DNA of 64,000 bases from Octopus vulgaris (lineage: Eukaryota). The notes under the pieces were generated by a model. That model was not told the DNA's origin. It saw nothing but the letters and a program-made list of their open reading frames with translations, and did not search any database. Location of the stretch: positions 93,620,001 to 93,684,000 of the forward strand of contig OX597824.1 in NCBI GenBank assembly GCA_951406725.2, written 5' to 3'. A program made the translations under genes and the position numbers. Positions 2,936-47,399 of this stretch are shown piece after piece (positions within the stretch are counted from its first letter, which is position 1; each line of letters begins with the position of its first letter).

Positions 2936-3151
2936 AAGAACCGAGAAACTAAACCCTAAAACACAACACAAATTGATGCAGTCCTCCATAAACAAGAATA
3001 ATCTATAGATCCCCTCAATACTCACGGGAATAAGAACGTCTTACCTTCATGTATCTCAGAAACATGGAGGCGCACCAGTTCGTGTAGTAAAAATTATCAC
3101 AAAATTGTCGAAGAAACATAATATTATTGCTATTTCTCTTAATAACATTTA

Positions 3152-4456
3152 CGCTGTTTAGCTTCCGTTTAGTCATTCTACATAACGTATATCTTACCTC
3201 CCTACGTACCTCTAACTACACATAGTGTACAGCGTTGTCATACACTAAATCGTACACTGTTCTTTAATACAACTGACATTGTTTAACTGCGGTTTAGTCA
3301 TTCTATTTAGCGTATATCTTACCTCCCTACATATCTCTAACTACATATAATGTACGGCGTTGTAATTCACTAAGTTGTACTCTGTTCTTTAATACAACTC
3401 ACGTTGTTTAGCTGCTGTTTAGTCATTCTACTTGCCTTATATCTTACCTCCCTACATATCTCTAACCACATACAGTGTACAGCGTTGTCATATACTACAC
3501 TACTCTGTTCTTTAATACAACTGTCGTTGTTAAGCTGTTGTTTGGTAATTCTACTTGGCTTATGTTAGTTAGTTAGTTAGTTAATTTTTTGGCTCAAAAG
3601 CAAAAAGCAAGGCCATGTATGGGGACACGGAGTTAAGTACAGGGTGGTGTTCATGTAAAGAGTTCAGGCCACTTGAGGTCAAGGGAGACTTTGAACAAAG
3701 CGGTCGTCGGCATCTTCACCATCTCGTCTGGCAGCTTGTTCCACGGATCCGCAACCCGGACGGAGAAAGCTCCTCTCCTTCGATTGAGATGAAATCGTCG
3801 CATGTAGAGCTTTTCAGAATGACCCCGCAGCCGACGCTCTGGAGCAGGAGTGAAGAACAGCTCTTTCGAGAGGTTACACTTATGTCTTACCTCCCTACAT
3901 ATCTCTAACTACATATCGTGTACGGCGTTGTCATACACTAAATCATACTCTGTTCTTTAATACAACTGGCGTTGTTTAGCTGCTGTCAAGCTATTCTACT
4001 TCGCTTAATATTACCTCCCCACATATCTCTAACTACAGATATTGCAAGGCGTTGTCATATACTACGCTGTACTCTGTTCTTTAATACAACTGACGTTGTT
4101 TAGCTGCCGTTTAGTCATTCTAATTCGCTTAATATTACCTCCCTACATATCTCTAACCACATATAGTGCAAGGCGTTGTCATATACTACGCTGTACTCTG
4201 TTCTTTAATACAACTGACGTTGTTTGGCTGCCGTTTAGTCATTCTACTAGGCTTATATGTTACCTCCCTACATATCTCTAACTACAAATAATGTACGGCG
4301 TCGTAATTCACTAAGTTGTACTCTGTTCTTTAATACAACTGGCGTTGTTTAGCTGCTGTCTAGTCATTCTAATTCGCTTAATATTACCTCCCCACATATC
4401 TCTAACTACAGACATTGCACGGTCGTTGTCATATACTACATCGTACTCTGTTCTTT
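3152..4456. repeat. Minisatellite, ~124-bp unit, ~8 copies, fourth copy interrupted by a LINE fragment
   Basis: Recurring GTTTAGCTGC..TTTAGTCATTCTA..TTACCTCCCTACATATCTCTAACTAC..CGTTGTCATA..TACTCTGTTCTTTAATACAACTG, with units starting near 3155, 3280, 3405, 3527, 3972, 4096, 4220 and 4345. Confidence 0.92.
3566..3878 (-). mobile_element. 5'-truncated CR1-like LINE 3' end with (TAAC)n tail
   Basis: Minus strand reads CNLSKELFFTPAPERRLRGHSEKLYMRRFHLNRRRGAFSVRVADPWNKLPDEMVKMPTTALFKVSLDLKWPELFT* (stop 3651-3653), the RGH..KL...FS.RV...WN.LP...FK..LD C-terminal CR1 signature. CTTATGT is duplicated at 3559-3565 and 3879-3885. Confidence 0.9.
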
Positions 4457-4848
4457 ACTACACAAATTATTATATCTTTCCTGTTCTTGTCTCTTGTTGT
4501 TCCCGTCGTCGTCGTCGTTGCCGCCATTTTAAAAATAACATTATTTTGATTTAGTAATCATATATGAAACGACTTGAAAAGAAGTCTTCTTGCTGTTTGT
4601 TTTTGCGTTTGTTTTTTCCGTTTCTTAAATTAGCAAAAACCTGCATAATGAACATAATAATTACCTTACAAAGAAAACATTACGACGACGACAACAACGA
4701 GAACAAAAACAACAACAACGACAACGACAACGACAGCAAAGATGAAAGCAATGAAGTCGTAAGATGGCTATGATGAAGCCGATGGGGAGGCAAAAGAGGA
4801 GATTGAAATGGAGGGCGAGGGGGTGTTTTATACTAATATTTACAAACA

Positions 4849-4849
4849 A

Positions 4850-4899
<50 letters not shown>

Positions 4900-4975
4900 T
4901 AATAAGGATAATAATAATGATAACAATAATAAGGATAATAATAATAACAATAATAAGGATAATAATAATGATAAC

Positions 4976-5036
<61 letters not shown>

Positions 5037-5054
5037 TTGATAATAATAATAATA

Positions 5055-5132
<78 letters not shown>
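4849..5132. repeat. (AAT)n microsatellite with a short higher-order variant block
   Basis: Directly visible; AACAATAATAAGGATAATAATAAT recurs at ~4895-4980. Confidence 0.95.
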
Positions 5133-5754
5133 AGTAAATCCGCATCGAAGCAATATTTAAGAATTGGCTATGATACATATGATCGCGGTATTAGATTTAA
5201 AAACATAAAACACGCATACATCCACACACACACGAACAAACACAAACACACACAAATACACACAGACACAGAGGCACACGCGCACATATACACATACACA
5301 CAGACACACATACACGAACGCTCGCATACACACACACAATCACAAACACACAGACGCACGCACAGACACACAAACACAAACACACATGCACATACAGAGA
5401 GACACACATGCAAACACACACACAAACACACGTGCACATACACACAGACGCACACGTAAACACATACACACAAACACACGCACACACATGCAGAGAAGGT
5501 CACACAGAGACATATATGTATGCACGTACGCATTTCAATGTTTTAATCGTCGGAAAGTTACAAAAGTGAACCAAGGGCCCCGGGGCCAAGTACATGGCTT
5601 CCCACGTTGCAATTATCAAATTGACAGATTCCTGATTAAATAAAAAAATATATATACCTGTATCGAAAATCTATACCTTCTCCTCTTCTCAACAAACCCG
5701 TATGTCTGCCTGTGTATACGCATATTCTTAGCGTGTGTGAATGTGTCAATATAT

Positions 5755-6141
5755 GGATGGAAGCACTCCGTCGGTTATGACGATGAGGGTTCCGGTTGAT
5801 CCGAATCAACGGAACAGCCTGCTTGTGAAATTAACGTGTAAGTGGCTGAGCACTCCACAGACACGTGTACCCTTAACGTAGTTCTCGGGGATATTCAGCG
5901 TGACACAGTGAGTGACAAGGCCGGCCCTTTGAAATACAGGTACAACAGAAACAGGAAGTAAGAGTCAGAGAAAGTTGTGGTGAAAGAGTACAGCAGGGAT
6001 CAACGCCATCCCTGCCGGAGCCTCATGGAGCTTTAGGTGTTTCCGCTCAATAAACACTCTCAACGCCCGGTCTGGGAATCGAAACCGCGATCCTACGACC
6101 GCGAGTCCGCTGCCCTAACCACTGGGCCATTGCGCCTCCAC
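5755..6141 (-). mobile_element. Full-length tRNA-derived SINE, family A
   Basis: Reverse complement of 1061-1444. 12-bp TSD GTGTCAATATAT at 5743-5754 and 6142-6153. Confidence 0.92.
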
Positions 6142-6145
6142 GTGT

Positions 6146-6192
<47 letters not shown>

Positions 6193-6219
6193 GTGTGTGT
6201 GTGTGTGTGTGTGTGTAGT

Positions 6220-6372
6220 TGGTGTGTGGTATGAAGCTTGCTTCCCAACCACGTGGTTCCGGGTTCAGTCCCACTGCGTGGCACCTTGGGCAAGTGTCTT
6301 CTACCATAACCTCAGACCGACCAAAGCCTTGGGAGTGGATTCAGTAGACTGAAACTAAAAGGAACCCATCAG
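6220..6372 (+). mobile_element. 5' part of tRNA-derived SINE family B (CORE-like)
   Basis: GGTTCCGGGTTCAGTCCCACTGCGTGGCACCTTGGGCAAGTGTCTTC; the CCTTGGGCAAGT segment resembles the CORE-SINE domain. Confidence 0.8.
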
Positions 6373-6381
6373 ATATATATA

Positions 6382-6624
6382 TATATGACATACATATAAA
6401 TGGAATGACCACTAGGTAGACTCCTAATATGCTAAAAGTAGACCCCATATGGTCTGACCACTAAGGAAAATTGTTCTCAAGAAAACTCGGCAAACACCAG
6501 AACGTAAAGCATTTGCCGTATTTTCTTGGGAACAATTTTCCTTAGTGGTCAGACCATATGGGGTCTACATTTAGCATATTAGGAGTCCACCTCGTGGCCA
6601 TTCCTCTTATATGTATGTTATATA
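6382..6624. mobile_element. Fold-back (palindromic) element: ~113-bp inverted arms, 17-nt loop
   Basis: 6382-6494 is nearly the reverse complement of 6512-6624 (e.g. GACCCCATATGGTCTGACCACTAAGGAAAATTGTTC / GAACAATTTTCCTTAGTGGTCAGACCATATGGGGTC). Lies in a TA context. Confidence 0.8.
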
Positions 6625-6718
6625 ATATCCTGAAACTTCAGATTCTTTTAAATATGCTAGGACAATCGTTTAAATTGATATTAATCTAATTTATTATTAA
6701 TTTTTTACCCTTATTTAA

Positions 6719-6783
<65 letters not shown>

Positions 6784-6786
6784 TTA

Positions 6787-6862
6787 TGTCACGCTGAATC
6801 TCCCCAAGAACTATGTTAAGGGTATGCGTATCTGTGGAGTGCTCAGCCACTTTCACGTTAAT
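6787..6862 (+). mobile_element. Internal fragment of SINE family A
   Basis: TGTCACGCTGAATCTCCCCAAGAACTATGTTAAGGGTA...GTGCTCAGCCACTT matches 1298-1372. Confidence 0.8.
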
Positions 6863-7004
6863 ATGACAGCGAGCTGGTAGAATCGTAGCGTGGTTGACGA
6901 TATAATGATTTTCAACATTATAAATGATGTCTGTTTTATAAATGTGACGGTCAGGTAAACAATATAACAAAAAACAATATGTAAAACAGAAAGCTATACA
7001 AAGA

Positions 7005-7277
<273 letters not shown>

Positions 7278-7763
7278 GGAGGGAGTCAGGGAGAAGGTAT
7301 AGAGGAAAACTGTTAGAGAAGCAGACCGAGAGACAGGGAGACAGAGTGAAGGAGTGGAAAAAGATAGACAGAATGAGAGGAGAGAGAGAGAGAGAGAGGG
7401 GGAGAAAGAGAGAGAGAGGGGGGAGCGAGAAAGTGAGAGAGAGATAGAGATAGAGAGAGAGAGAGAAAGCAAGAGACGTAGACAGTTCAAATATCAAAAA
7501 TACATTTAATGTATTTAAAACAGGAATAAGAAAAATGGAAGACGCAGAGAAGGAAAGTTTTAGACGAAATTTTGCGTGGGAAAAAAATGCTAAATCTATT
7601 CCATCATTATCCGTTCTTTTATTTGTTTCGTTTGATGTTTTCGCATTATCGTTGTTGTTATTCTTGTTCTTGTCTTTCTTCTTCCTGCTGTTACTACTGC
7701 CACTACTGTTGTTCATCGTGGTCTTTGTTTTGTTTTTTTCTGCAATTATATCTCTTCTTCTCA

Positions 7764-8115
7764 TTCTTCTTCTTCTTCTTCTTCTTCTTCTTCTTCTTCT
7801 TCTTCTTCTTCTTCTTCTTCTTCTTCTTCTTCTTCTTTAACTTCTTCTCCATCTTCTCCTTCATCTTCTTCTTCCACTTCTTCTAATTCTAATTCTTCTT
7901 CTTTTTGTTCTCCTTCTTCTTCTTCTTCAACTTCTTCTCCATCTTCTTCTTCCACTTCTTCTTCCACTTCTTCTAATTCTAATTCTTCTTCTTTTTCTTC
8001 TCCTTCTTCTTCTTCTTCAACTTCTTCTTCATCTTCTTCTTCATCTTCTTCTTCCACTTCTTCTTCTAATTCTAATTCTTCTTCTTTTTCTTCTCCTTCT
8101 TCTTCTTCTTCTACT
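7764..8115. repeat. (CTT)n tract followed by a 90-bp CTT-derived higher-order repeat x3
   Basis: Units 7841-7930, 7931-8020 and 8021-~8113 share the TCTAATTCTAATTC landmark. Confidence 0.88.
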
Positions 8116-8267
8116 TCTTATTCTTATTCTTCTTTCAAAATTATTTGGTTAACGTTTGCTTCTTTATTTTCTAATGCCTCCATGTTTTAATTTTCTGTCA
8201 AGTCTCTAACGCAATACGATAAATCAAACAGAACTACACATAATATACATACATACATATGTATATG

Positions 8268-8385
<118 letters not shown>

Positions 8386-8659
8386 TATATATATGCATGA
8401 AAAATGGCGTATTAGTCTAAATAAAATTAATACAATGCAATATCAAATAAATTGTGATATAGATGGATATCTAGAAAAATAATGTTGATTTTTTTCCCTT
8501 TCTCAATATCCTGGACATTCTCGGAGGTTTTATTGTTCTCAATAATATGGGACAATATTAAATATGGAAGGATGTGCGGCGCAATTTGTGAAAACTATCA
8601 TTCAAAATTCCTTTCGTTTATCGGTATATTGGTTGCAAATTTTGTCAAAGGACTATAAT

Positions 8660-8846
8660 GTTAGGGGGAAAAGAATACTCGATCGCATTGACGCCAATGA
8701 TCAACTAGTACTTATTTTACCGACCCTGAAAGGAATGAAAGGTGAAGTCGACCTCGGCAGAATTAGAACTCATAACGAAAAAACGGACGAAGTGCCGTTA
8801 AGCGTTTTGCCGACTGCAGTAACTAATATTCCGACTCACCGCCTTA
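8660..8846 (-). mobile_element. Diverged SINE family C copy
   Basis: CCCTGAAAGGAATGAAAGGTGAAGTCGACCTCGGCAGAATTAGAACTC is the reverse complement of the family C body. Confidence 0.7.
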
Positions 8847-9382
8847 AACAAATTCTGCATGATATTTTTATATGCTAAGGCCTTCATGATTCGAGACACC
8901 ATGTTTTAGACGATGTCGAACACATAGAAAACGTGTAGGATATTCTTCACTAGTTCTATGCCTTGTTCTGTTGTGAAAATGCTGTAACCACCTATATTGT
9001 ATTATGCAATGATCTTACAATTCCAAGCAATGCCTTATGGTTTCGCTATTTGATTTGTCAACATATGGTTCTGGTTTTCATCCCAGTCTATGGTACTTAA
9101 CGCAACTGTATTCTTTGAGGCCCACACTTCTAAGTGAAATTGATTAGATTGTATGAAAGACCCTCAGATAGACTTCATTTATTCATGTTCCATAGCTTTA
9201 GCCTTAAGTCTATCTTCCTATTTAGCTCTCAGTCTGGTCCTCGCTTTTGCATTCATTTGTTCAAAGTCCTACATGTGAGGAGAGTTCAACGTCTTTATAT
9301 ACAACTTTCCACTGAAGTAACCTAAGTGATGCGGCTTCTTCTTCTCATTCCTTCACCCGTCTCGGAGGCCATTAAAATATCA

Positions 9383-9606
9383 CCTGGCAGAAACGTTAGC
9401 ACGCCGGGCGAAATGCTTAGCGGTATTGTGAGTTCAAATTCATTGTGAGTTCAAATTCCGCTGAGGTCGACTTTGCCTTTCATCCTTTCGGGGTCGATAA
9501 ATTAAGTACCAGTTACGCACTGGGGTCTATGTAATCGACTTAATCCATTTGTCTGTCGTTGTTTGTTCCCTCTGTGTTTAGCCCCTTGTGGGTAATAAAG
9601 AAATAG
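9383..9606 (+). mobile_element. SINE family C (tRNA-like head, Meta-domain-like core, LINE-like tail)
   Basis: GAGTTCAAATTCCG B-box; CTTTCATCCTTTCGGGGTCGATAAATTAAGTACCAG resembles the MetaSINE conserved domain; tail ends AATAAAGAAATAG. 11-bp TSD TTAAAATATCA at 9372-9382 and 9607-9617. Small internal duplication of TTGTGAGTTCAAATTC. Confidence 0.88.
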
Positions 9607-10312
9607 TTAAAATATCATAAGTTCTGCAGCTCTTCCTTTAACTCTGTGACAAGCAGCAAATAATAAACATTCAATTTTGTGTGGCATCACTTCAAGTATA
9701 AGCCCTGAACCAATACTAATTATTCGACAGAAAAACTTTTCCTAAGTACTTCGCTTTATAATATGGTAACAATTTATGGTTCATACGAGTATATAAATTA
9801 TTGTTTGTTGACTACAGAGTGGCATTATGTATAATATCGCCTTTTCTGTACTGTGAATGCAACAATACGAAGCACTAATTACGCCTGCCGAGCCAAGATT
9901 AGCGTGCAAAACAAAAGATGAGATTCATGCAGTATTATATTATCTGTCCAATAAAAAAAAAGACCCTTTTTTCTTAAACTCTCTCTAGGAATAGAACGAT
10001 ACACAAAGGCAAGACTCGCTTATTCCTTCGTTCTGTACGTAAATGACAAATTAATCTTCTCCTGGGTGATACACTAATATATTCATCGTTGCCAGATCGA
10101 TAACAGAAGCAGCATTCAATTACTGCGGTCAAATATGTTGTCTGCACAACCACGACCAACGCCCCTCCATCACCCTGGCACCGTACAAATGGTGTAATTA
10201 TTTATTGAGTTTCTAACCAATTCTTCTTCGACTTGCAGTTCGACCGTTTTTTAAAATCTTCTTTCCAATCGACTTTCATTGATTGACATTTTTGTCGTTG
10301 TTGTTGTTGTTA

Positions 10313-10842
10313 TTCTTCTTCTTCTTCTCCTTTTTCTTCTTCGTCTGCGCCTTCATCTTCTCCTCTTCTCTTCCTCTTCTTCTTCTTCTCCTTCTTCTTC
10401 TCCTTCTTCTTCTTCTTCTTCTTCTTCTTCTTCTTCTTCTTCTTCGTCTGCGCCTTCTTCTTCTTCTCCTCTTCTTCTTCTTCTTTTCTTCCACTTCTTC
10501 TTCTTTCACTTCTTCTTTGTCTTCTTCTTCTTCGTTTTTGCCTTTTTCTTCGTTTTCTCCTTCTTCGTCTTCGCCTTCTTCTTCTTCTTTTTCTTTTTTC
10601 TTCTCCTTTTTCTTCTTCTTCTTCTCCTTCTTCTTGCTCTTCTTCTTCTTCTTCTTCTTCTTCGTTTACTCCTCCTTCTTCTTCGTCTCTCTTCTTCTTC
10701 TTCTTCTTCTTCTTCTTCGTTTACTCCTCCTTCTTCTTCGTCTCTCTTCTCCTTCTCCTTCTTCTTTTTTCTTCTACTTCTTCTTTTTCTTCTTCTTCCC
10801 CTCCTCCTCCTCCTCCTCCTCCTTCTTCTTCACCTTCTTTCT
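10313..10842. repeat. Degenerate (CTT)n/(CCT)n polypyrimidine tract
   Basis: Directly visible. Confidence 0.92.
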
Positions 10843-11828
10843 TGATCTTTTTATAATGTTCATGGCGGAGGTGTATTTCTTTACTTCTTACTTTTGTTAT
10901 TGTTGTCATGTCATTTCTTCGACTCCGTCTCCCGGTTATGAGTTACGAGTTCAATTTCGCGTTGCAGCCACGGAGGTGTATTCCTCCAATAACCCCATAA
11001 AACATCTCTTTAATAATATTTCCATCAACCGGCGTATTTTCCCGCTTACAAGTCGAAAACTAAAAACCAAAATTTACTGCCCAACATGGCAGGTCGTGTT
11101 ATACACGAACAATTTTGTGAAGGACCCAAAATTCCAGGGGGTAACACAACATAATTTGGGAAACAGTAACGATGTTTGTTTAAATAAGATAAGTCGTAAC
11201 ATAGTAGAAGTAATGTAAATTGTTTCTGGGAGAGTATATTATACAAAAATTAACATAATTGTAATGTGTCCCAATTACGCTGAGAGGATAATTTTGTTTA
11301 AATTATTTTTGATTTAGATTAAATTTTATGTTTTGATATTTATTTTTGAGTAAAAGCGTTGATAAAGTTTTTGATTGTAAAGTAATGGGTATAGAAATAT
11401 TTTTTTGTATTTACTGAAAAGGATGAAGATTGTATGGTTTAGTTTAAGCTACATGTTTACGATATATGTGCTCCGGATGATGCGATGGACAAACCGAAAC
11501 ACATGCATAGAATTAACATCCGTAGAAATTCAGCTAAATAACTGTGTTGACATTGAATTCCTTGAACATAATCGACTATTTCTTCTCTTCCGTTCGTTAT
11601 CTATAAAAGGAAGTGCCAAAGTGATTCTAAGATGAAATTGAATTAAATCCTTCTAAGGCCTCAGGGATAGGGAACAGTGACAAAGTGTCATCCAGTAGTT
11701 CCCAATCTATCTGGTAGATAACATATTTTCCGGAAGCCATTGTCTCTAAATCCTTGTCAGAATGTCAACCTGGCGTCATCTAACGACTATCCCTATGCAA
11801 ACTTGAATTTATACGTATGTGTGCGTGT

Positions 11829-12267
11829 GTATGTATGTATGTATGTATGTATGTATGTATGTATGTATGTATGTATGTATGCATGTGTGTGTGTTGTGTA
11901 TGTGTAGGAGTGTTGTGTGTGTATATGCGTGTGTGTACGATAGATAAATAGGTAGAGATAGACAGACAGACAGACAGATAGATAGATACATACATACATA
12001 CATACATACATACGTACGTACGTACATACATACATACATACATACATACGTACGTACGTACATACATACATACATACATACATACATACATACATACATA
12101 CATACATACATACATACATACATACATACATACACATACATACATACATACATACATACATACATACATACATACACGTACATACATACATACACACATA
12201 CATACATACATACATACATACATACATACATACATACATACATACATACATACATACATACATACAT
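11829..12267. repeat. (TATG)n and oppositely oriented (CATA)n tetranucleotide tracts
   Basis: Directly visible. Confidence 0.92.
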
Positions 12268-13569
12268 AGACAGTAGCTCATTTACCTTGTTTGTTTAATT
12301 CATAAACGAATTCATAGAACCGAGGACCTGCAGATTTCTTTATGTGTCACCATAGCCATTTTAGATGAACGAAAATTATCTCACCTCGATTCATCTATAT
12401 TTACCTACATTTTAGCCAACACTATGTATCTAAGAGTCCCAACTTCGTGATATTAAAATACCTAATATATTAAATCGATATATATATATTTATTCAGTAG
12501 AATTCCATTCACCTCCAAATGCTGCCTTTCGAAAAATTTGGTGAATGGAGACAACCTCATAAAGAACCCTGCTTCTCCTTCACATAAACAAGATAAGGAA
12601 CCGCAATCTCAAAGCAGACAGACACTTATGTATGTTAATATACTAATGCAGTTCTATCTCTTAAACATTCATTTGGAATCCGGCGTTTAGGTTCGGGTTA
12701 TATCTTCGGTGCAGCAGATGAGAAATAAATCTTATTTTATCGGAGATAATATTGCGAGAAACTATAAGAGTTTGTGCCCATTGAGTAGGATCACTGAATA
12801 TAAATACAATGTTACTAATGTAATTAACTTCTTGAGTAACTGAGCTGGTAACACAATATCTTATCCGTTCTTTATTTCGAAACATTTCACCTTTCGCTAG
12901 CATCGAACGATATTAGGAAGTTCGGGTTGTGTGGAAGCTGGCTGTTACTTACCTTAGATTTATGGAACGGCTTGAACGAAACCCATTGGAGCAATGAAGG
13001 AGAACGAACTATCTTATGACACCAGCCAAGTCTATTTACCCTTGATATTTACTGCTTCAAGAACTCTAGCAGCGAATACTAATTGTCTTATTATGGACAC
13101 AATGAGCTGTCAAGGTTTCAATTGCTAATCCGACATAATATAAACAAAAACAGCCTCTACATGGCTTTACAAGAGCGACAACACTAATGTGTGGATTACA
13201 ATTTAAGGTTTAATGTTAGAGTGTTGTAAGACATTGAAAGTAGTTAATGGATAAGCTGCTTGCTGCGTTTGAATAACTTAGAATCTAAGAAGTGTGTTCG
13301 TTCAGAAAACTTATGTATACATTGTTGCAGTTGCGGTGATAGTTGCGGTAAATATGATAATGCTCGTGTATTTGTTGAGGTTGGGTTGTCTTTCTGGTGG
13401 TGATGGTGATCGTGAAGGGATTCATACTGCTCATACAAGGGATGGTTACGATTACAATGCTGCTGAAGCTATAGAGGTAGTTAAGGAAAGAAAGGACATA
13501 CGTTGGTGAAACTAACAAGGAAAGGCAATCCATTTTAGTAATTAAATTGTAAGTGAATAATATTTATAA

Positions 13570-14360
13570 CAAATTTTGGCACCAGGTCAGCAATTCTGGA
13601 AGAGGGGTAAGTTGACTGCATCGACCGCAGTATTCAGCTGGTATTGAGTTTATCTATTCGAAAGGATGAAAGGCAAAGTCGACCTCGGCGGAATTTGAAC
13701 GCAGAACTCAGACAGACGAAATGCGGGTAGCTGTTTTGCCCGTCGCGCTAACAAACCTGCCAGCCCACAGCTTTAAAATGAAAATATCCTTTTCTTCTCT
13801 AGGCACAAGGCCCGAAATTTTGGAGAATGGGGCCAGTCGATTAGATCGACCCCAGTACGCAACTTGTACTTAATTTATCGACCCCGAAAGAATGAAAGGC
13901 AATGTCGAATTTGAACTCGGGAAAACACAAAATACCTATTTCTATACTGCCCACAAGTGGCTAAACACAGAGGGGGACAAAGAAGGACACACAAACGGAT
14001 TAAGTCGATTACATCGACCCCAGTGCGTAACTGGTATTTATTTAATCGACCCCGAAAGGATAAAAGGCAGAGTTGACTTCGGCGGAATTTGAACTCAGAA
14101 CGTAACGGCAGACGAAATACCGCGAAGCATATCATCCGGCGTGCTCACGTTTCTGCCACCTCGCCGCATTTTTAAAATGACCATTTTGATGTAACAAACA
14201 ATCTGTGGGGTGTATAGAATTATTGGATTCACATTTTAGCTCAAGGCTAGTAATTCCGGAGGAGGGGGTAAGTCGATTACAGCAACCCAGTGCTCGACTG
14301 GTAATTATTTTATGGAGAACGATTGAATGGAATGCAAAGGCTAGCTGGGCGGAATTTGAA
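13570..14360 (-). mobile_element. Cluster of four same-orientation SINE family C copies/fragments (best copy 13934-14167)
   Basis: Repeated AGTCGATTACATCGACCCCAGT..CTGGTA..TTTATCGACCCCGAAAGGATGAAAGGCAAAGTCGAC..GGCGGAATTTGAAC at ~13610, ~13835, ~14003 and ~14270. Confidence 0.8.
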
Positions 14361-14799
14361 AGGGGATTATACAAAATTTATTCATTGGAGGAAATTACGA
14401 TCAGAGCTATGAATTCCTATTGAGCAAAACCATTGTGCAACGGGTTTGAATTTTTATAATCTGGGGGTCTATTTAGCAAAGGATACAAAAGTAACATTTT
14501 TAAAATGTCAGCAATCTTGAGGGGATGCAGGTTATCGCTGCAGGGGCATAAGACGTATGAGAGCAGCACAGGTTTGTGTCTTGCAATTACTTGAAGGAAG
14601 TTAACAAATAGTGTTTAATCAAACTATAGAAAAATATAGTTATTCATAATGAAGTATTTATGGCCGGTTTTTATGTGAGAGAGAATGATAGTGGCATTGA
14701 TTGAGTAACCAACCGTAGCAAAAAACAAATGAAGTTACTGTCGAGGCCAAGATCTGGTCTTGGATTCCCAAGTGTATACACATACATACATATGTGATT

Positions 14800-14818
14800 G
14801 TGTATATATATATGTACG

Positions 14819-14853
<35 letters not shown>

Positions 14854-14916
14854 ATATATATATATCATTATGCATATGTATATATATATATCATTATATA
14901 TATATACATATACATA

Positions 14917-14947
<31 letters not shown>

Positions 14948-14984
14948 ATGTATATGTATATATGTATATATATATGTATGTATG

Positions 14985-15038
<54 letters not shown>

Positions 15039-15444
15039 GTATATATATATATGTATATATATATGTAGTTATGATTGCTTTTCAGAAAGATGAATTAGAT
15101 ATTCTTATTTCGTCTAAACAAATTGGCTGCGTTCAGAATGACGCTCTTTTAAACGATAGAAACCATGAGAATTTCGCATCAGGTCTTGTAAGACATACAC
15201 TTACAACAAAGAAATACATGGGGACATCAAATGATATAGGTACGCACCGGTCCCCGAACGCAGACGCCGAATGAACGGCGGACAGACGGTGAGAAATATT
15301 ACGTACGCTGCCAGTTTCTCGATTGATTGATAGTTTGCTCCGATACAAGAGAAAGAACCTTTGTTACTCAACGTCTCTTGAGGTAAACTGTCTCTCATGC
15401 TCTCTCTCTCACTCACTCTTTCCCTCTCTCAGTGTATATATATA

Positions 15445-15477
<33 letters not shown>

Positions 15478-15592
15478 ATATATATATATATATACATAGA
15501 TATATACATATATATATGTATATATATGTATATATATATATATATGGATATATATACATATATATATGTATATATCTATGTATATATATACA

Positions 15593-18547: not shown

Positions 18548-18948
18548 TTTTACTCTTTTACTTGTTTCAGTCATTTGACTGCGGCCATGCTGGAGCACCG
18601 CCTTTAATCGAGCAACTCGACCCCGGGGATTATTCTTTTGTAAGCCCAGTACTTATTCTATCGGTCTCTTTTGACGAACCGCTAAGTAACGGAGACATAA
18701 ACACACCAGCATCGGTTGTCAAACAATGCAAGGGGGACAAACACAGACACACAAACACACACACGCATATATATATACATATATACGACGGGCTTCTTTC
18801 AGTTTCCGTCTACCAAATCCACTCAAAAGGCATTGGTCGGCCCGTGGCTATAGTAGAAGACACTTGCCCAAGGTGCCACGCAGTGGGACTGAACCCGGAA
18901 CCATGTGGTTGGTAAACAAGCTACTTACCACACAGCCACTCCTGCACC
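18548..18948 (-). mobile_element. Full-length SINE family B (CORE-like, ~400 bp, (GAGTAAA)n-type tail)
   Basis: Minus-strand head GGTGCAGGAGTGGCTGTGTGGTAAGTAGCTTG..GGTTCCGGGTTCAGTCCC; collinear with 34436-34851. Embedded in (GATA)n. Confidence 0.9.
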
Positions 18949-25223: not shown

Positions 25224-26180
25224 TAACTCTCTGTATTGGCCACACAGAGGGGATAATGTAGAGCTTTTCCTTTCGAAGAGTGAAAAAGAAAAAGGAGAAA
25301 AAGGAAACAAATGTAAAATTTTGATCAAAAGGGATCGGAAAAAAAACGATCAAAAGAGATCGTGTATCGCAGAAAGAATTTTTTTTCTTAAATTAAGAAA
25401 CAAGATTAGGTTCATCCTTGGAAAGAAAAGCCTACAGAAAAGACCACGGTAACCACAGGCAGGGAGTATATAAACACATGATAGCAAAGTACTCTCTCTC
25501 TCTCTCTCTGTCTTTTATTATTTACAGGATCATGCTCAAAGTGGTTTCGTCACTCGCACGCACCATCTTTGCTACATTCACCCACCTTTTTTTGAAACTT
25601 TCACGAGACAAAACCTGCCTCTCCATTCTCACCTTCCTTTTCAAGTGGCACTTGAAAAAGTTGATGAGCGATTAACCAGAGAGGTAAGTGTTTGTCTCTA
25701 ATCCTTTCGCTCGAGTCCACCACACACATTCTTTCACCATGGCCACCAGTACGATGAAAACTCCCGTGACTAAGGCGGCGAGCTGGCAGAGACGTCAGCA
25801 CGCTGAGCGAAGCGCTTCGCGGTATTTGGCCCGTCGTACGTTCTGCGTTCAAATTCCGCCGAGGTCGACTTTGCCTTTCATCCTTTCGGGGTCGATAAAT
25901 TAAGTACCTGTTACGCACTGAGTTCGATGTAATCGACTTAATCCGTTTGTCTGTCCTTGTTTGTCCCCTCTATGTTTAGCCCCTTCTGGGTAACATCGAA
26001 ACAGAAAACTGCCTTGCCTTCCAGGTTGAGAGAATAGTGGGTGGAGCAATTTCCACGATAGACTCGGCCGATAGGTGGACTCGTCCCACACGTGACAGCA
26101 GCCCTTCGGCATAAGCCCACAGGTCCGAAATGGTTGGACGCTACACGAGTGCGTGCAGAACGGTTTCGTCGCTCTGGGAG
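25224..26180 (-). mobile_element. 5'-truncated Tx1/L1-clade LINE (ORF2 C-terminus + 3'UTR), interrupted by a SINE
   Basis: 26180-26004 reads SQSDETVLHALV*RPTISDLWAYAEGLLSRVGRVHLSAESIVEIAP..LEGKAVF (decayed ET..H....C zinc-finger motif). It resumes at ~25765 as VFIVLVAMVKECVWWTRAKGLETNTYLSG*SLINFFKCHLKRKVRMERQVLSRESFKKRWVNVAKMV..LSMIL* (stop 25522-25524). A T-rich 3'UTR follows. Confidence 0.8.
25772..26003 (+). mobile_element. Full-length SINE family C nested in the Tx1/L1 fragment
   Basis: GGCGGCGAGCTGGCAGA head through TTTAGCCCCTTCTGGGTAA tail. Diverged TSD GAAAACTCCCGTGACT (25756-25771) / GAAAACTGCCTTGCCT (26004-26019), 13 of 16 identical. Confidence 0.88.
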
Positions 26181-34435: not shown

Positions 34436-34851
34436 ATTTACTCTTTTTACTCTTTTTACTTGTTTCAGTCATTTGACTGCGGCCATGCTGGAGCACCGCC
34501 TTTAGTCGAGCAAATCGACCCCGGGACCTATTCTTTGTAAGCCCAGTACTTATTCTATCGGTCTCTTTTGCCGAACCGCTCAGTGACAGGGACGTAAACA
34601 CACCAGCATCGGTTGTCAAGCAATGCTAGGGGAACAAACACAGACACACAAACATATTCACACACACTTATATATATATACATATATACGACAGGCTTCT
34701 TTCAGTTTCCGTCTACCAAATCCACTCACAAGGCATTGGTCGGCCCGGGGCTATAGCAGAAGACACTTGCCCAAGATGCCACGCAGTGGGACTGAACCCG
34801 GAACCATGTGGTTGGTTAGCAAGCTACTTACCAAACAGCCTCTCCTGCGCC
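34436..34851 (-). mobile_element. Full-length SINE family B
   Basis: Collinear with 18548-18948 and almost identical to 43291-43679. Confidence 0.92.
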
Positions 34852-42318: not shown

Positions 42319-42861
42319 AAAGCTGGCAGAATCGTTAGCGCGCCGGGCGAAATGCTTAGCGGTATTTCGTTTGCCATTACGTTCTGAGTTCAAATTCCGA
42401 CGAGGTCGACTTTGCTTCTCATTCTTTCCGGGTCGATTAAATAAGAACAAGTTACGCACTGGGGTCGATATAATCGACTTAATCCCTTTCTCTGTCCTTG
42501 TTTGTCCCCTCTATGTTTAGCCACTTGTGAACAATAAAGAAATATATATGTTATATACACACGGTGTACACACAAATACCAAGTTACACACCCATTCACA
42601 CAAGACCCTTAGCGGTATTTCGTCTGCCGCTACGTTCTGAGTTCAAATTCCGCAGAGGTCGTCTTTGCCTTTCATCCTTTCGGGGTCGATTAAATAAGTA
42701 GCAGTTACGCACTGGGGTCGATATAATCGACTTAATCCGTTTGTCTGTCCATGTTTGTCCCCTCTATGTTTAGCCACTTGTGGGCAATAAAGAAATATAT
42801 ATATTATATACACACGGTGTACACACACATGCTAGGTTACACAACCATCCAAACAAGACCC
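42319..42861 (+). mobile_element. SINE family C copy plus a 253-bp tandem duplication of its 3' part and downstream flank
   Basis: 42355-42607 and 42608-42861 both run CTTAGCGGTATTTCGT...AATAAAGAAATATATAT..TACACACGGTGTACACAC..CAAGACCC. Confidence 0.88.
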
Positions 42862-43679
42862 AAACAGATATATATACATGTGCCTTCGCGCGCGAGTGTG
42901 TGTGTGCGCGTGTGTGTGTGCGCGTGTGTGCGTGTGTGGTGGTTTAGGCTTGGTTGGTGAGTGTGTGGATGTGTTTGTATGTGTGTATCTGTGTGTGTGT
43001 TCTGGCAAACGTTCGGAACATTTGTGGATGTCTTTGCAGAATTCTCTACGCTACATTTGTATGTATTTATGTATGTCTACTTAGGACTTGCTTTTTAATT
43101 ATTCACAAATTACCGTAAAAGTCAGACAACTGGAATATGCATTAGATTTTTATGATAAGATAGCAATTAATTGTAACTTGTTAAAATTATAGCTGGGTAA
43201 TACAAAAAAGTGTGCAAATTTCTGGGGTAATAGATTTTGAACCACTTTCTAATCGGAAAAGAGGAGGCGCGGAACACGTGGAATAATGTATTACTCTTTA
43301 CTCTTTTACTTGTTTCAGTCATTTGACTGCGGCCATGCTAGAGCACCGCCTTTAGTCGAGCAAATCGACCCCGGGACTTATTCTTTGTAAGCCCAGTACT
43401 TATTCTATCGGTCTCTTTTGCCGAACCGCTAAGAGACGGGGACGTAAACACACCAGCATCGGTTGTCAAGCAATACTAAGGGGCCAAACACAGACACACA
43501 AACATATACACACACACTTATATAAATATACATATATACGACAGGCTTCTTTCAGTTTCCGTCTACCAAATCCACTCACAAGGCATTGGTCGGCCCGGGG
43601 CTATAGCAGAAGACACTTGCCCAAGATGCCACGTAGTGGGACTGAACCCGGAACCATGTGGTTGGTTAGCAAGCTACTT

Positions 43680-45912
43680 TATTTCAAAACATTTGCCATA
43701 AAGGCAGTACACAGATTAAGTTAGCTTTGCGGGCTGGACGAGGACATTAATGAGGTGAATGATAATGAAAGAAAGATGATAAGGATGGGAGAAGACAGAA
43801 AGCGCCCGCCGACTTTTGCTTCTCTAAAACATTGTTCTTTTTAAAAAAGATTAACACAAAACGAGGTATTAAACCTCTTACAATTTTTCCCAATTTTGGG
43901 TTTAGCAGTCCATTATTAATACAAAACGAGGTATTAATCCTCTTACAATTTTTCAATTTTTGGACTTAAGTCCATTACTAATAATACATATCGTCCTCGA
44001 AATAGCTTGTGCCCGCGCCCTCCACCATCAACCACGCCTCCCTCAGAACGTAGTCAAGTTCCGAGTTCGCGTCGCCCGGGACCAAGTTATAGTCTTCATT
44101 GAGCTCCTTTAGCCCTAGCGTCACGTCGAACGCCACGGCCTCCACAGCTACCTGCGGAGGCCATTCGGGGTCCTGTGTGAAGGCTAAAGGTGCTCCCTTG
44201 TAGTGCTCTTTCATCACTTTTTCAATTTCTCCTCCTCTATAGAAGAGGACCAATACATTCAGTTCTTTCGTTGGCGGCACAGTTTCCGCCAACGGTATTC
44301 CTTCTCTTGTCGGTGGCACAACCCCAACCGACGTAGTTCCGCGACATTCCGGTGCCACACTGACAGCCGGCAACGTCCCGTTTTTCTTCCTCTTTTTCTT
44401 TTTTTTTTCCCTTTTCAACTGAGGGAGGGTGCGTCTCCTCCGTGGCTGGAAGATTCGCCCTCCTCTCCTCATCCCTATTATCCTTTGGTGAGCACCCATT
44501 GTTGCTCACCTTCCTCTTTCGGCCTCTGCTTGAGGAGTCCTCTGCTTTCTCGGCCGTTATCGTTCCCTCTTCTAGAGGGGTTTTACTTAACTGTTCCGGG
44601 ATCCTATTTTGTTCCCGAGGACAGTTCTTCTTTATGTGGCCGGACTCCAAGCACCGATGACACTTAGGGGCGACCCTCAAGCATCACCGGGTACCTGCAC
44701 CCGGCCATTTTCAAAAAATCTGGAAAAACCAGATTGGCTGATTGGGTCCACAGGGTCAAAACTGCTTTCGAGCCAACCCAAGCAGCCGCAGGAAGAACTT
44801 TTACATTGAGGAGCTTAGTTTCGCTGTCACCCAGACCCCGGCGGATAGTCTCCTCTATCCACTCGGGTTCTATGTCGGGTGGCAGTCCGCAGATCCAAGC
44901 TTTCATTAATTTCTTTTTTTTGTAAGTGGGCAGGAATAAGATTTCCTTACCCTCCAAGGGTTCGCTAGCAAATTTGCAAGCCTCTTCAGGGGTGTCAAAC
45001 AGCAACCACACCGTTCCATATTTGACACCCCTGGAAATGAATTTAATTGTTGGCAAATACTCCTCCAACTCCTCCTCAATTGCCGTCTTTTCGAATAGGG
45101 CGATGGTGTCAAGTGCCTTGGAGTAGGTTCTCAACACCACCGTCCTATCTTCACGGTCCTTCAACCACTTTTTGGGTGGTATGATTTCCCACTCCAAAAC
45201 TTTGTTATTTTTCATTGCCATGTTTTTTAAAAAATATATTCAAATTAGACTCAAAAGCAGGAAGAAAAAAGTTCAAAAGTCTAAATAAATTTGATAGATT
45301 TTTGAAAAAACAAAAAGGAGAAAGCACAACAGAAGGGAAGAAATTAACGGAAAGTCGCAATAAAGAAAAAACAAAGGGGGGGGGTAAATGAAGTTCAAAA
45401 GAAAGTTAATAAACAGAAAAAACACAGCAAAAATATTCTGCGGTACTCCCGGCCTGGGTTGAACCTGGAACGCCGCAACTGCAACACAACCTCCACAAAA
45501 ATGGGTCCGAAAGGTAATCCAATAGTGGCTTATTTTTATACTTTTCTTGCGAAGTACTCTGACAAGGGAATAAATTCAGCAAACTCAAACACAGCACTGG
45601 TTACTGCCAACGGTAATTTTAACAGTAACTGTATTGAATCCTGAGTATACGCCCCTCCACTGTTTTTTCTTTTTTTTTTTTTCAATGAACACAAAAACGG
45701 CAGCCGCCTAGCGCAGGCGAAATTGTCTCAGAGTTGGACACAACCTACTGAAATAATAATTGGCACGCAATAAATTATGCCCAACTCACAATAAACAAAA
45801 TCACTTACCTCGACAACTTTCCGTTTTTGGTCTTTTTTCCTTTAGTTGGACAGAGCTTGTTACTCACGTCCGCTCTAGCTCAACAAGAAGCAACCGACTA
45901 ACTGCGCATGTC
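43680..45912 (-). mobile_element. ORF1-only non-autonomous L1/Tx1-like retroelement, 2233 bp, 17-bp TSD
   Basis: TSD TGGTTAGCAAGCTACTT at 43663-43679 and 45913-45929. ~690-bp 5'UTR, one gag-like reading frame, ~300-bp 3'UTR ending in AATAAA at the junction. No APE or RT coding sequence seen. Confidence 0.88.
43978..45221 (-). pseudogene. ORF1/gag-like nucleic-acid-binding protein (~413 aa when joined): RRM-like N-terminus, CX2CX4HX4C zinc knuckle, basic linker, acidic C-terminal region; two frameshifts
   Basis: Three overlapping ORFs: 44664..45221 (..GTVWLLFDTPEEA..KAWICGLPPDI..VMLEGRP), 44237..44680 (KCHRCLESGHIKKNCP) and 43978..44499. The shifts map to a C4 run at ~44667-44670 and probably an A10 run at 44399-44408. 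Confidence 0.8.
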
Positions 45913-47399
45913 TGGTTAGCAAGCTACTTACCACACAGCCACTCCTACATTATTACATAATGTATTATATTAAACTGTAGGATTAAAAATGCTGATTAAT
46001 AGTTTTATTTGAAGAGGGTACTAGAAAATGTAAGAATTTTAGTAAAAATTGATTTTTGCTTCCTTCATTTATGTAGTATATGATTGTCAGGATTTCCGAC
46101 GTGGCATTTGTCGGTGTGGAGATACTTATTAAATATTTCTGCTCTATGGCCATAGTTGCCAGGTTTATTAGAATTTTTAAATATGTGATATTTCTTAGCT
46201 GCATTATTAGCTGCAAAATTTTTCACAAATTTCGAAATGATTTGCAATACTCTACCATCTTTCACTTAGTTCTGAAATCAATAGAATGTTCTTTCAATCT
46301 CCAGAACTTAATGTCACTATTTCAGTGAAGGAAGAGTAACGATCACTACATTTATCTCGTCGTCAGAGTTTGTCGTAAGGAGATAAAGCATACACCTCAA
46401 AAGAGAAACCTCAATCATATACGGATTAAGTTTCCCACCAAAACAAAAAAAATATGTAGTCGTATAGTGTTTCGTTTTTGCGTTGTTCTAAAAGAAATAA
46501 AATTATATTTCGTTGTTTAAATATTCTTTCTACCATACTTACGTATTTAGCAGAATATCAAGGTTTGGTCTCGCAGGGGTAAATGTGACTTCATACACGT
46601 TTGTTTACAGGTTTTATGCATATTAAGGGATCGTGCATTTTTCCCTCTGCAAAAGAAGTTAACTCTATTTTTATGAGATATTTTATGTTGCTTTCATCCC
46701 TAAATGTGTACACAAACTCGCTATTTCTTTGTTCATAAATCCTGCATAGAAATGCATCCCACATGTTCACAATTCTCTTCTATTTTTTCATCTTAGCAAC
46801 TTTTCGTATTTTTCAAAACTTCTATGCTTTTCTTTTGACAAAGTATTAACGTCTGAAGAGTTAAGCCTTTTCTGTTGTCTTTTACTCATTAAACTAATAT
46901 AATATTTGTTATTAATTTGTTCCTGTTCTGTGTATGAATTTGTCTGTCATACGTTCATGTATGCATGTGAGTGTCTGTATACGTGTGATGTGTGTGTGTG
47001 TTCGTGTGTGTGTGTGTGTAGCCATAATTTCAAGCGCAAAATAGATGGGAACCTCTGCTGTCTACATTTACTAGCAATCTGAACTTACCACTGACAGCAA
47101 AAGAAAACAATATTAAGACTGTAAATGGTAACGCTATTTTAGATGTTCAAGTATGTTTACTGAAAATTTTGAGTTACCACGAAGAACTGCGAAACTATCT
47201 TCCCCGTTGTCAGTCTCCTCTCGTACCCTTATACCCATTCAAAAGTCTGTACTCCTGGATCCACCACGTGAATCGAACTTAACAGTGGGACGAGCTTTAC
47301 GTAACATCCAATGGCTTTCTTCTATACTCGGAATGTGTAACTCACTCATTGCTCGCCAATATGCATTCGAAGACGCACTTTGTGTATGTGTGAAAAAGG

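Follow-up and report, generated by a model that had tools for sequence, protein, structure and literature searches.

LINE derivatives that carry ORF1 only are known, with HAL1 derived from L1, HeT-A from Jockey and Ag-Sponge from CR1, and the passages dealing with such elements name no Tx1-derived or mollusc example (PMC5786205; PMC5753468). A separate habit, insertion into one particular sequence, is found among LINEs of the Tx1 clade, in which Xenopus Tx1 inserts into Tx1D, Keno into U2, and Kibi and Koshi into microsatellites (PMC4494074). The crocodilian Tx1-Mar inserts into Mariner-N4_AMi, with SINEU passengers; the sharing of a target by passengers has been used as an argument for trans-mobilisation, and tandem insertions occur (PMC4494074). 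For SART1Bm and R1Bm, annealing to the cut target has been proposed for short sequences resembling it that lie in the 3′ UTR or in downstream read-through (PMC7265360). In the octopus system considered here the two separately known habits, ORF1-only derivation and the repeat targeting of Tx1-type LINEs, are joined in a young system. We think it very probable that the element concerned, family A, is an ORF1-only LINE derivative which inserts at one fixed base of a SINE and owes its copying, in trans, to the ORF2 protein of a second family, family C.

The window is a stretch of 64,000 nucleotides from Octopus vulgaris (contig OX597824.1, positions 93,620,001 to 93,684,000). On its minus strand lies a full-length copy of family A, an ORF1-only non-LTR retroelement of 2,233 bp (43680..45912) flanked by exact 17-mers at 43663–43679 and 45913–45929, for which the chance expectation is 0.01 matches. 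It consists of a 691-nt 5′ UTR (45222..45912, minus strand), ORF1 (43978..45221, minus strand; ATG at 45221, TAG at 43978) and a 298-nt 3′ UTR (43680..43977, minus strand), with an internal 65-bp tandem duplication at 43850–43983. There is no ORF2 in the unit and no poly(A) tract at the 3′ junction of family A, and the AATAAA at the 3′ end has its final bases within the target sequence. The initial annotation had described a 2233-bp unit between exact 17-mers, with a leader of ~690 bp, a trailer of ~300 bp, a CX2CX4HX4C knuckle, AATAAA running into the target and no ORF2, and all of these were found again. Its single gag-like frame holds for intact copies of the family and not for this one, in which ORF1 lies in three pieces: relative to the intact copy L002 there are two bases fewer near 44670 and one base more near 44408, both in homopolymer runs. 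An Rfam search of the element for a 5′ ribozyme or other RNA gave 7 chance-level matches only, and the fold of its first 130 nt is no more stable than the folds of shuffled sequences (z 0.01).

A DNA search of the same genome, in which the best 40 of 3,321 candidates were scored, found 35 near-full-length copies of family A at 96–100% identity and with common ends, the window copy included, and the exact 26-nt 3′ end of the family occurs 217 times in the genome. Family A is a real, young, multi-copy ORF1-only family, with the ~2.2-kb copies and the shared ORF1-stop/3′ UTR junction that the initial annotation had looked for. A single open frame of 414–416 aa is present in 9 of the 30 best copies (414 aa in the intact ones); the frames of the other 21 are broken, mostly at homopolymer runs, for which assembly error and real decay are alike possible. 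Some copies (L035, L036, L037, L052, L055, L057, L059 and L060) differ from the window copy over their first ~356 nt and align only from position 357, an exchange of 5′ UTRs between ORF1-only lineages, and copy L113 resembles a chimera of families B and A within ORF1. Contigs under organism labels A–D contain pieces of family A, and those under labels A and D contain pieces of family C, which speaks to presence only. One run guessed to be RNA yielded a 2,083-nt contig over 43853–45922, showing neither transcription nor a start site, and none of the sequence sets containing the element is on record as RNA.

The ORF1 protein has a single zinc knuckle of the form CX2CX4HX4C (44621..44662, minus strand), read from the sequence and matched by Pfam zf-CCHC at E 0.0016, under the curated cut-off; the Pfam search of ORF1 gave nothing else. 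The knuckle named in the initial annotation therefore stands, and the RRM-like segments named with it are a lead, to which one Atlas row adds ZCCHC3 RNA-binding domains at 0.90. A single-sequence fold of ORF1 (pLDDT 37.8) was too low for use. Its protein relatives are Octopus CCHC proteins; an Octopus sinensis protein annotated as K02A2.6-like (P0003) joins ~70 residues of family A ORF1 to an integrase Pfam domain, and is probably a chimeric gene model. The gag-like knuckle had raised the question of an LTR element or provirus, which we reject: no terminal repeats were found in the element, its partner is an APE-RT element, and 5′-truncated copies exist.

Family A resembles HAL1, HeT-A and Ag-Sponge in being a non-autonomous LINE derivative with only ORF1 and a LINE tail, and in having a constrained ORF1. 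It is not HAL1 proper, as neither the L1 ORF1 Pfam family nor, among PDB matches, L1 ORF1p was found for its ORF1. HAL1 is mammalian and L1-derived, with no sequence-specific target in the passages available, whereas family A has a CCHC-type ORF1, no junction poly(A) and one fixed target. Judged by these sequence features, family A resembles HAL1 in its way of working without being HAL1 itself.

The 17-mer beside the element recurs in the window at 34813 and again at 18910, there with two mismatches, both times within an uninterrupted repeat copy of ~400 bp, and for this reason the flank of the element is identified as a SINE. Its head, with an A-box-like motif assigned by eye, begins upstream of the element (45930..45946, minus strand), and the remainder follows downstream (43302..43662, minus strand), with the body, the tail, a CCTTGGG/CORE-like segment and a B-box-like motif at 43639–43648. 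No tRNA was called in the SINE head by ARAGORN (0 of 14 loci) or matched by Rfam (3 loci), and both boxes were placed by eye; a 'tRNA-derived' origin of the SINE therefore rests on box-like motifs together with published work. Octopus tRNA-Core SINEs and the CORE-SINE OR2 have been described (PMC4758252; PMC8967140; PMC5786205). The host SINE is like them in its abundance, its length of ~400 bp, its A/B-box-like motifs and its CCTTGGG core-like segment, a likeness drawn from published descriptions. Away from the host SINE, a weak match to a type I hammerhead was seen at L230:2400–2507 (25.5 bits against a 34-bit cut-off, E 0.01).

All 30 of the best family A copies end at one base of the SINE head, with an identical 3′ junction to the downstream target (43663..43679, minus strand), at the start of which the bottom-strand nick would lie. 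The same base was found in 30 of 30 copies picked by their tail alone. Every insertion there splits the A-box-like from the B-box-like motif of the SINE. The empty site, taken as one exact 39-mer, occurs 20,788 times in the genome, and with an estimated 170 sites filled the occupancy of this SINE variant is ~1%. Three expectations of the initial annotation have to be given up here: the 17-mer is part of an abundant SINE, present empty at 34813 and 18910, and is not simply a flanking target site duplication (TSD); the different TSDs predicted for other copies are not supported; and neither is a loose L1-type TT/A preference at the nick, because every copy uses one fixed SINE site.

A shared site could also arise if the SINE and its insert moved together as a composite, all copies then going back to one old insertion. 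Full-length copies do all have SINE on both sides, or another element upstream, and the distances between flanks correlate weakly with those between elements (rho 0.20). Against this, among the 35 full-length copies the downstream SINE flank differs by 7.3% on average and the last 400 nt of the element by 0.55%, so that diversity is about 13 times greater in the flanks than in the element they adjoin. Over the matching part, host SINEs differ by 7.7% and empty control SINEs by 6.1%, a comparison from which five tandem control SINEs were left out, as was copy L038, whose downstream neighbour is family C, from this and from the target-variant comparison. Moreover, near-identical elements are hosted by different SINE variants, 5′-truncated copies of families B, C and D also lie behind the SINE head, and families C and D, unrelated by DNA, use the same base. 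Composite movement is largely refuted by this evidence, and we regard it as extremely unlikely; the insertions of family A into the SINE are independent events.

The true duplication appears to be shorter than the apparent one. Had all 17 bp been copied from the target, as was first proposed, variants of the host target should recur in the upstream copy. At positions 10–17 the host target departs from its mode in 11 of 35 copies, giving 23 variants, and the upstream copy shares none of them (0/23); at positions 1–9 it shares one of three, a position-7 variant in copy L017. Duplications of 0, 1, 7 and 11 bases are seen in 5′-truncated copies of related families, and another lineage has a distinct target-like leader of its own, seen repeatedly at independent loci whose hosts differ. 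From the unshared variants, the truncated copies and the recurring leader together, we infer a 5′ end of about 8 target-like bases on the full-length RNAs. In the window copy this piece, positions 10–17 of the apparent TSD, would be 45913..45920 (minus strand), leaving 45921..45929 (minus strand) as the upstream copy of a likely true duplication of about 7–10 bp; only about the first 9 bp of the 17 behave as a duplication.

Family A is one of at least five ORF1-only lineages, whose ORF1s are 59–79% identical over the N-terminal region. Among the first 30 tail matches taken by position, 28 had an ORF1 stopping about 270–330 nt before the tail and two were short internal remnants. A second lineage, the L161 group, uses the same SINE base in 30 of 30 copies. 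The junction was also sampled from its upstream side, in 70 of 227 exact matches; eight places already seen (five of family A, three of family C) were skipped in choosing 40 extra loci. Eighteen of these junctions were SINE variants without an insertion, 36 had A/B-type tails and 16 ended in ORF2. Just upstream of the 36 A/B-type tails lay ORF1 in 35 cases and a short remnant in one. The outcome that would have reduced family A to a one-off product, with all other copies running on into ORF2, was seen in none of the three samples (0/30 picked by tail, 0/36 A/B-type junctions and 0/30 of the L161 group).

The ORF1 of these elements is under selection. Among 11 intact young copies there are 14 synonymous and 14 non-synonymous changes, an excess of synonymous changes at an expected synonymous share of 0.233 (p 0.002) and also of 0.33 (p 0.046). 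Between lineages dN/dS, a measure proposed in the initial annotation, indicates purifying selection, at 0.11–0.22 in all ten pairs of five lineages over the N-terminal ~190 codons, with dS of 0.8–2.5 and hence partly saturated. With many copies sharing one junction and a constrained ORF1, the earlier proposal of a non-autonomous family moving as an ORF1-only unit is borne out. The same pattern might be produced by an autonomous parent with an A-like ORF1, in which selection acted and from which ORF1-only copies arose by repeated deletions or premature 3′ ends. Such a parent could lie below the reach of searches that score top candidates only (40 to 150 of 3,321 to 15,555 first-look candidates), but the absence of ORF2 after ORF1 in all three samples speaks against it, as do the other APE loci: all 14 of those fetched have an ORF1 nearer to that of family C or no ORF1 match.

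A tree of 24 ORF1 N-terminal regions, from which L176 was left out for want of a long enough match, bears on the same point. Nine ORF1-only rows and an Octopus sinensis protein form one group with 100/100 support, each of these lineages stopping 200–480 nt before the common tail, and the group lies on a long branch (1.6) apart from five autonomous ORF1s, under a midpoint root only. Derivation by repeated loss from such a parent is therefore very improbable, and we keep to an ORF1-only family that moves as such. As far as sequence can tell, family A is also not a recent deletion of family C, because the two ORF1s are only 26–29% identical (E about 1e-20) and that of family A falls outside the autonomous ORF1 clade. 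Their homology is taken from this match, a profile comparison having been set aside as circular, since its alignment included part of the family C ORF1. Either the ORF1-only lineage is old and has acquired or kept the tail of its helper, or its ORF1 has evolved fast after loss of ORF2.

ORF1-only units also stack. At L031 (G000:C5:78747000–78756999) at least five near-identical family B units of ~1.98 kb stand head to tail and are followed by a family A copy; serial insertion or local tandem duplication could have produced the B array. Another array holds five ORF1-only units of several types, and another three copies of family C. At L199 (G000:C1:39263554 region) the same SINE site is occupied by a mini-element of 89 bp, the only one of its kind seen, in which the first 46 bases of family A are joined to its last 43.

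Family C, which targets the same SINE base, is autonomous. Its elements are 5.43–5.46 kb long and encode a CCHC ORF1 of ~470–490 aa and an ORF2 of 1,140 aa, with Pfam domains Exo_endo_phos (APE), RVT_1 (RT), zf-RVT and zf-CCHC; the best solved relative of ORF2 is L1 ORF2p (E 1e-63). Copies are 96–99% identical (many 96–98% at the APE domain), and several have open frames of 1,140–1,150 codons. The same SINE junction followed family C in 30 of 30 copies, a count biased by the 18 target bases contained in the query. In the sample of 70 junctions, where ORF2 was present in 16, twelve had a C tail and four the tail of family D. Families A, B and C have in common the last ~20 nt and a hairpin, which in the window copy has a 4-bp stem and a 5-nt loop (43694..43706, minus strand) and is found in family D as well. 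Across 14 tails all 56 of 56 hairpin cells are paired, one pair being changed on both sides in family D. Family C also adjoins ORF1-only copies in shared arrays (L145, L285, L293 and L299).

A CCHC ORF1 and an ORF2 with APE, RT and a C-terminal zinc-binding domain is the architecture of the Tx1 clade. The label Tx1 for family C rests on this architecture, which is common to a wider L1 group, together with behaviour; none of the 49 matches to family C, most of them 23–31% identical, is labelled as a named Tx1. The octopus system is like that clade in having an APE-RT LINE that targets another repeat, non-autonomous passengers at the same target, tandem insertions and a microsatellite-targeting sister. 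It differs from Tx1-Mar in that the target is the head of a SINE and the passengers are protein-coding ORF1-only elements and not snRNA-headed SINEs. Site specificity, at 30 of 30 sampled, equals or exceeds the 90% reported for SINEU-3 (PMC4494074).

The initial annotation had named a Tx1-like family at window positions 25224–26180 as a possible source of ORF2. The copy at that place is a 3′ fragment, split by another repeat, of a family in which 16 of 18 located tails, from 20 loci (L069–L088), end in (TATC)n-type repeats. We reject it as the helper, as it has a different target and a different tail, without significant match to that of family A. Family C is likely the better candidate. The (TATC)n family is nevertheless a sister of family C, with ORF2s 48–64% identical, and among related users of the SINE site, family D and L263–L269 have both site and tail in common with family A. 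That one of these was the helper is improbable in our view, given that no autonomous type at the SINE site is younger or commoner than family C (12 of 16 junctions), whose age also matches that of family A; D and L263–L269 could have been helpers in the past. Two further autonomous relatives, L258 and L260, have APE domains about 60% identical to that of family C, a different tail and non-SINE flanks.

We therefore return to family C as the probable engine of family A. Target-primed reverse transcription and the packaging of RNA by ORF1 protein are established LINE biology, and the steps proposed here draw on both. Family A would be transcribed and would make its own ORF1 protein, which likely packages its own RNA, and such packaging would explain the conservation of ORF1. 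The ORF2 protein of family C would recognise the common 3′ tail, that is the 4-bp hairpin and the last ~20 nt, and its APE domain would nick the bottom strand of the SINE between the A-box-like and B-box-like motifs. Reverse transcription would be primed at the nick, with no poly(A) laid down, and the target-like bases at the RNA 5′ end, about 8 in number, likely help 5′ joining. A near-complete target would thereby be left beside the new copy and would allow further elements to stack there later. The SINE would offer a plentiful landing pad at which insertions probably do little harm. The outcome would be a chain of parasites on three levels, with the SINE as target, the LINE as engine and the half-LINE as passenger.

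The tails carry a further feature. In the window copy a motif at 43718..43730 (minus strand) is the reverse complement, with interruptions, of the target over its first ~11 bases, and in family C the motif is an exact 9-mer. Within the last 100 nt of 13 SINE-targeting tails, the longest exact match to the reverse-complemented target measures 9 nt in three, 8 in one, 7 in five and 5–6 in four, compared with 3–5 nt in four tails from relatives whose targets are different; a similar core of 5 nt occurs in the tail of the (TATC)n family. Matches of 9 nt were equalled in 1–2 of 2,000 shuffles, while the match of family A, 6 nt exact and interrupted, was equalled in 261 of 2000. These matches are not independent tests, because the tails are related. 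The tails fold no more stably than shuffles (z −0.75 to −1.39), and the best folds for families A and C, unlike that for B, show the motif paired to read-through target, without significance. The complementarity of the motif to the target is suggestive only.

A bolder reading, which we think rather unlikely though worth stating, is that an old ORF1-only clade tracks the SINE-specific LINE through its tail, whether kept or swapped in, and that the RNA itself takes part in targeting, the motif pairing either with the target or with its read-through RNA, and the target-like 5′ leader rebuilding the site. Tail pairing and site rebuilding would together make one SINE a renewable dock for a guild of dependent elements. 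If true, an APE-type LINE would here be choosing its site with the help of RNA, and this could be used to direct insertions to a safe site of 20,000 copies. SART1Bm and R1Bm offer a likeness, a short target-related sequence near the 3′ end of the element, but in those elements the motif has the sequence of the top strand, and its proposed partner is the nicked bottom strand (PMC7265360). Because the octopus motif is of opposite sense, its partner would be the top strand or else read-through RNA.

A literature search, with subscription journals, Repbase and Dfam outside its reach, found nothing published on octopus families that are ORF1-only or that target a SINE. The system is real and well supported, and its combination of an ORF1-only LINE with single-base SINE targeting appears to be new, each habit being known separately. 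Since intact copies of both helper and passenger are present, it becomes testable why a passenger keeps an ORF1 of its own, and how an APE-type LINE reaches single-base specificity. Elsewhere in the window, a 253-bp tandem pair of another SINE-like repeat lies directly downstream of the element (42355–42861), and a satellite with a 124/125-bp unit lies near the window start (3151–4462).
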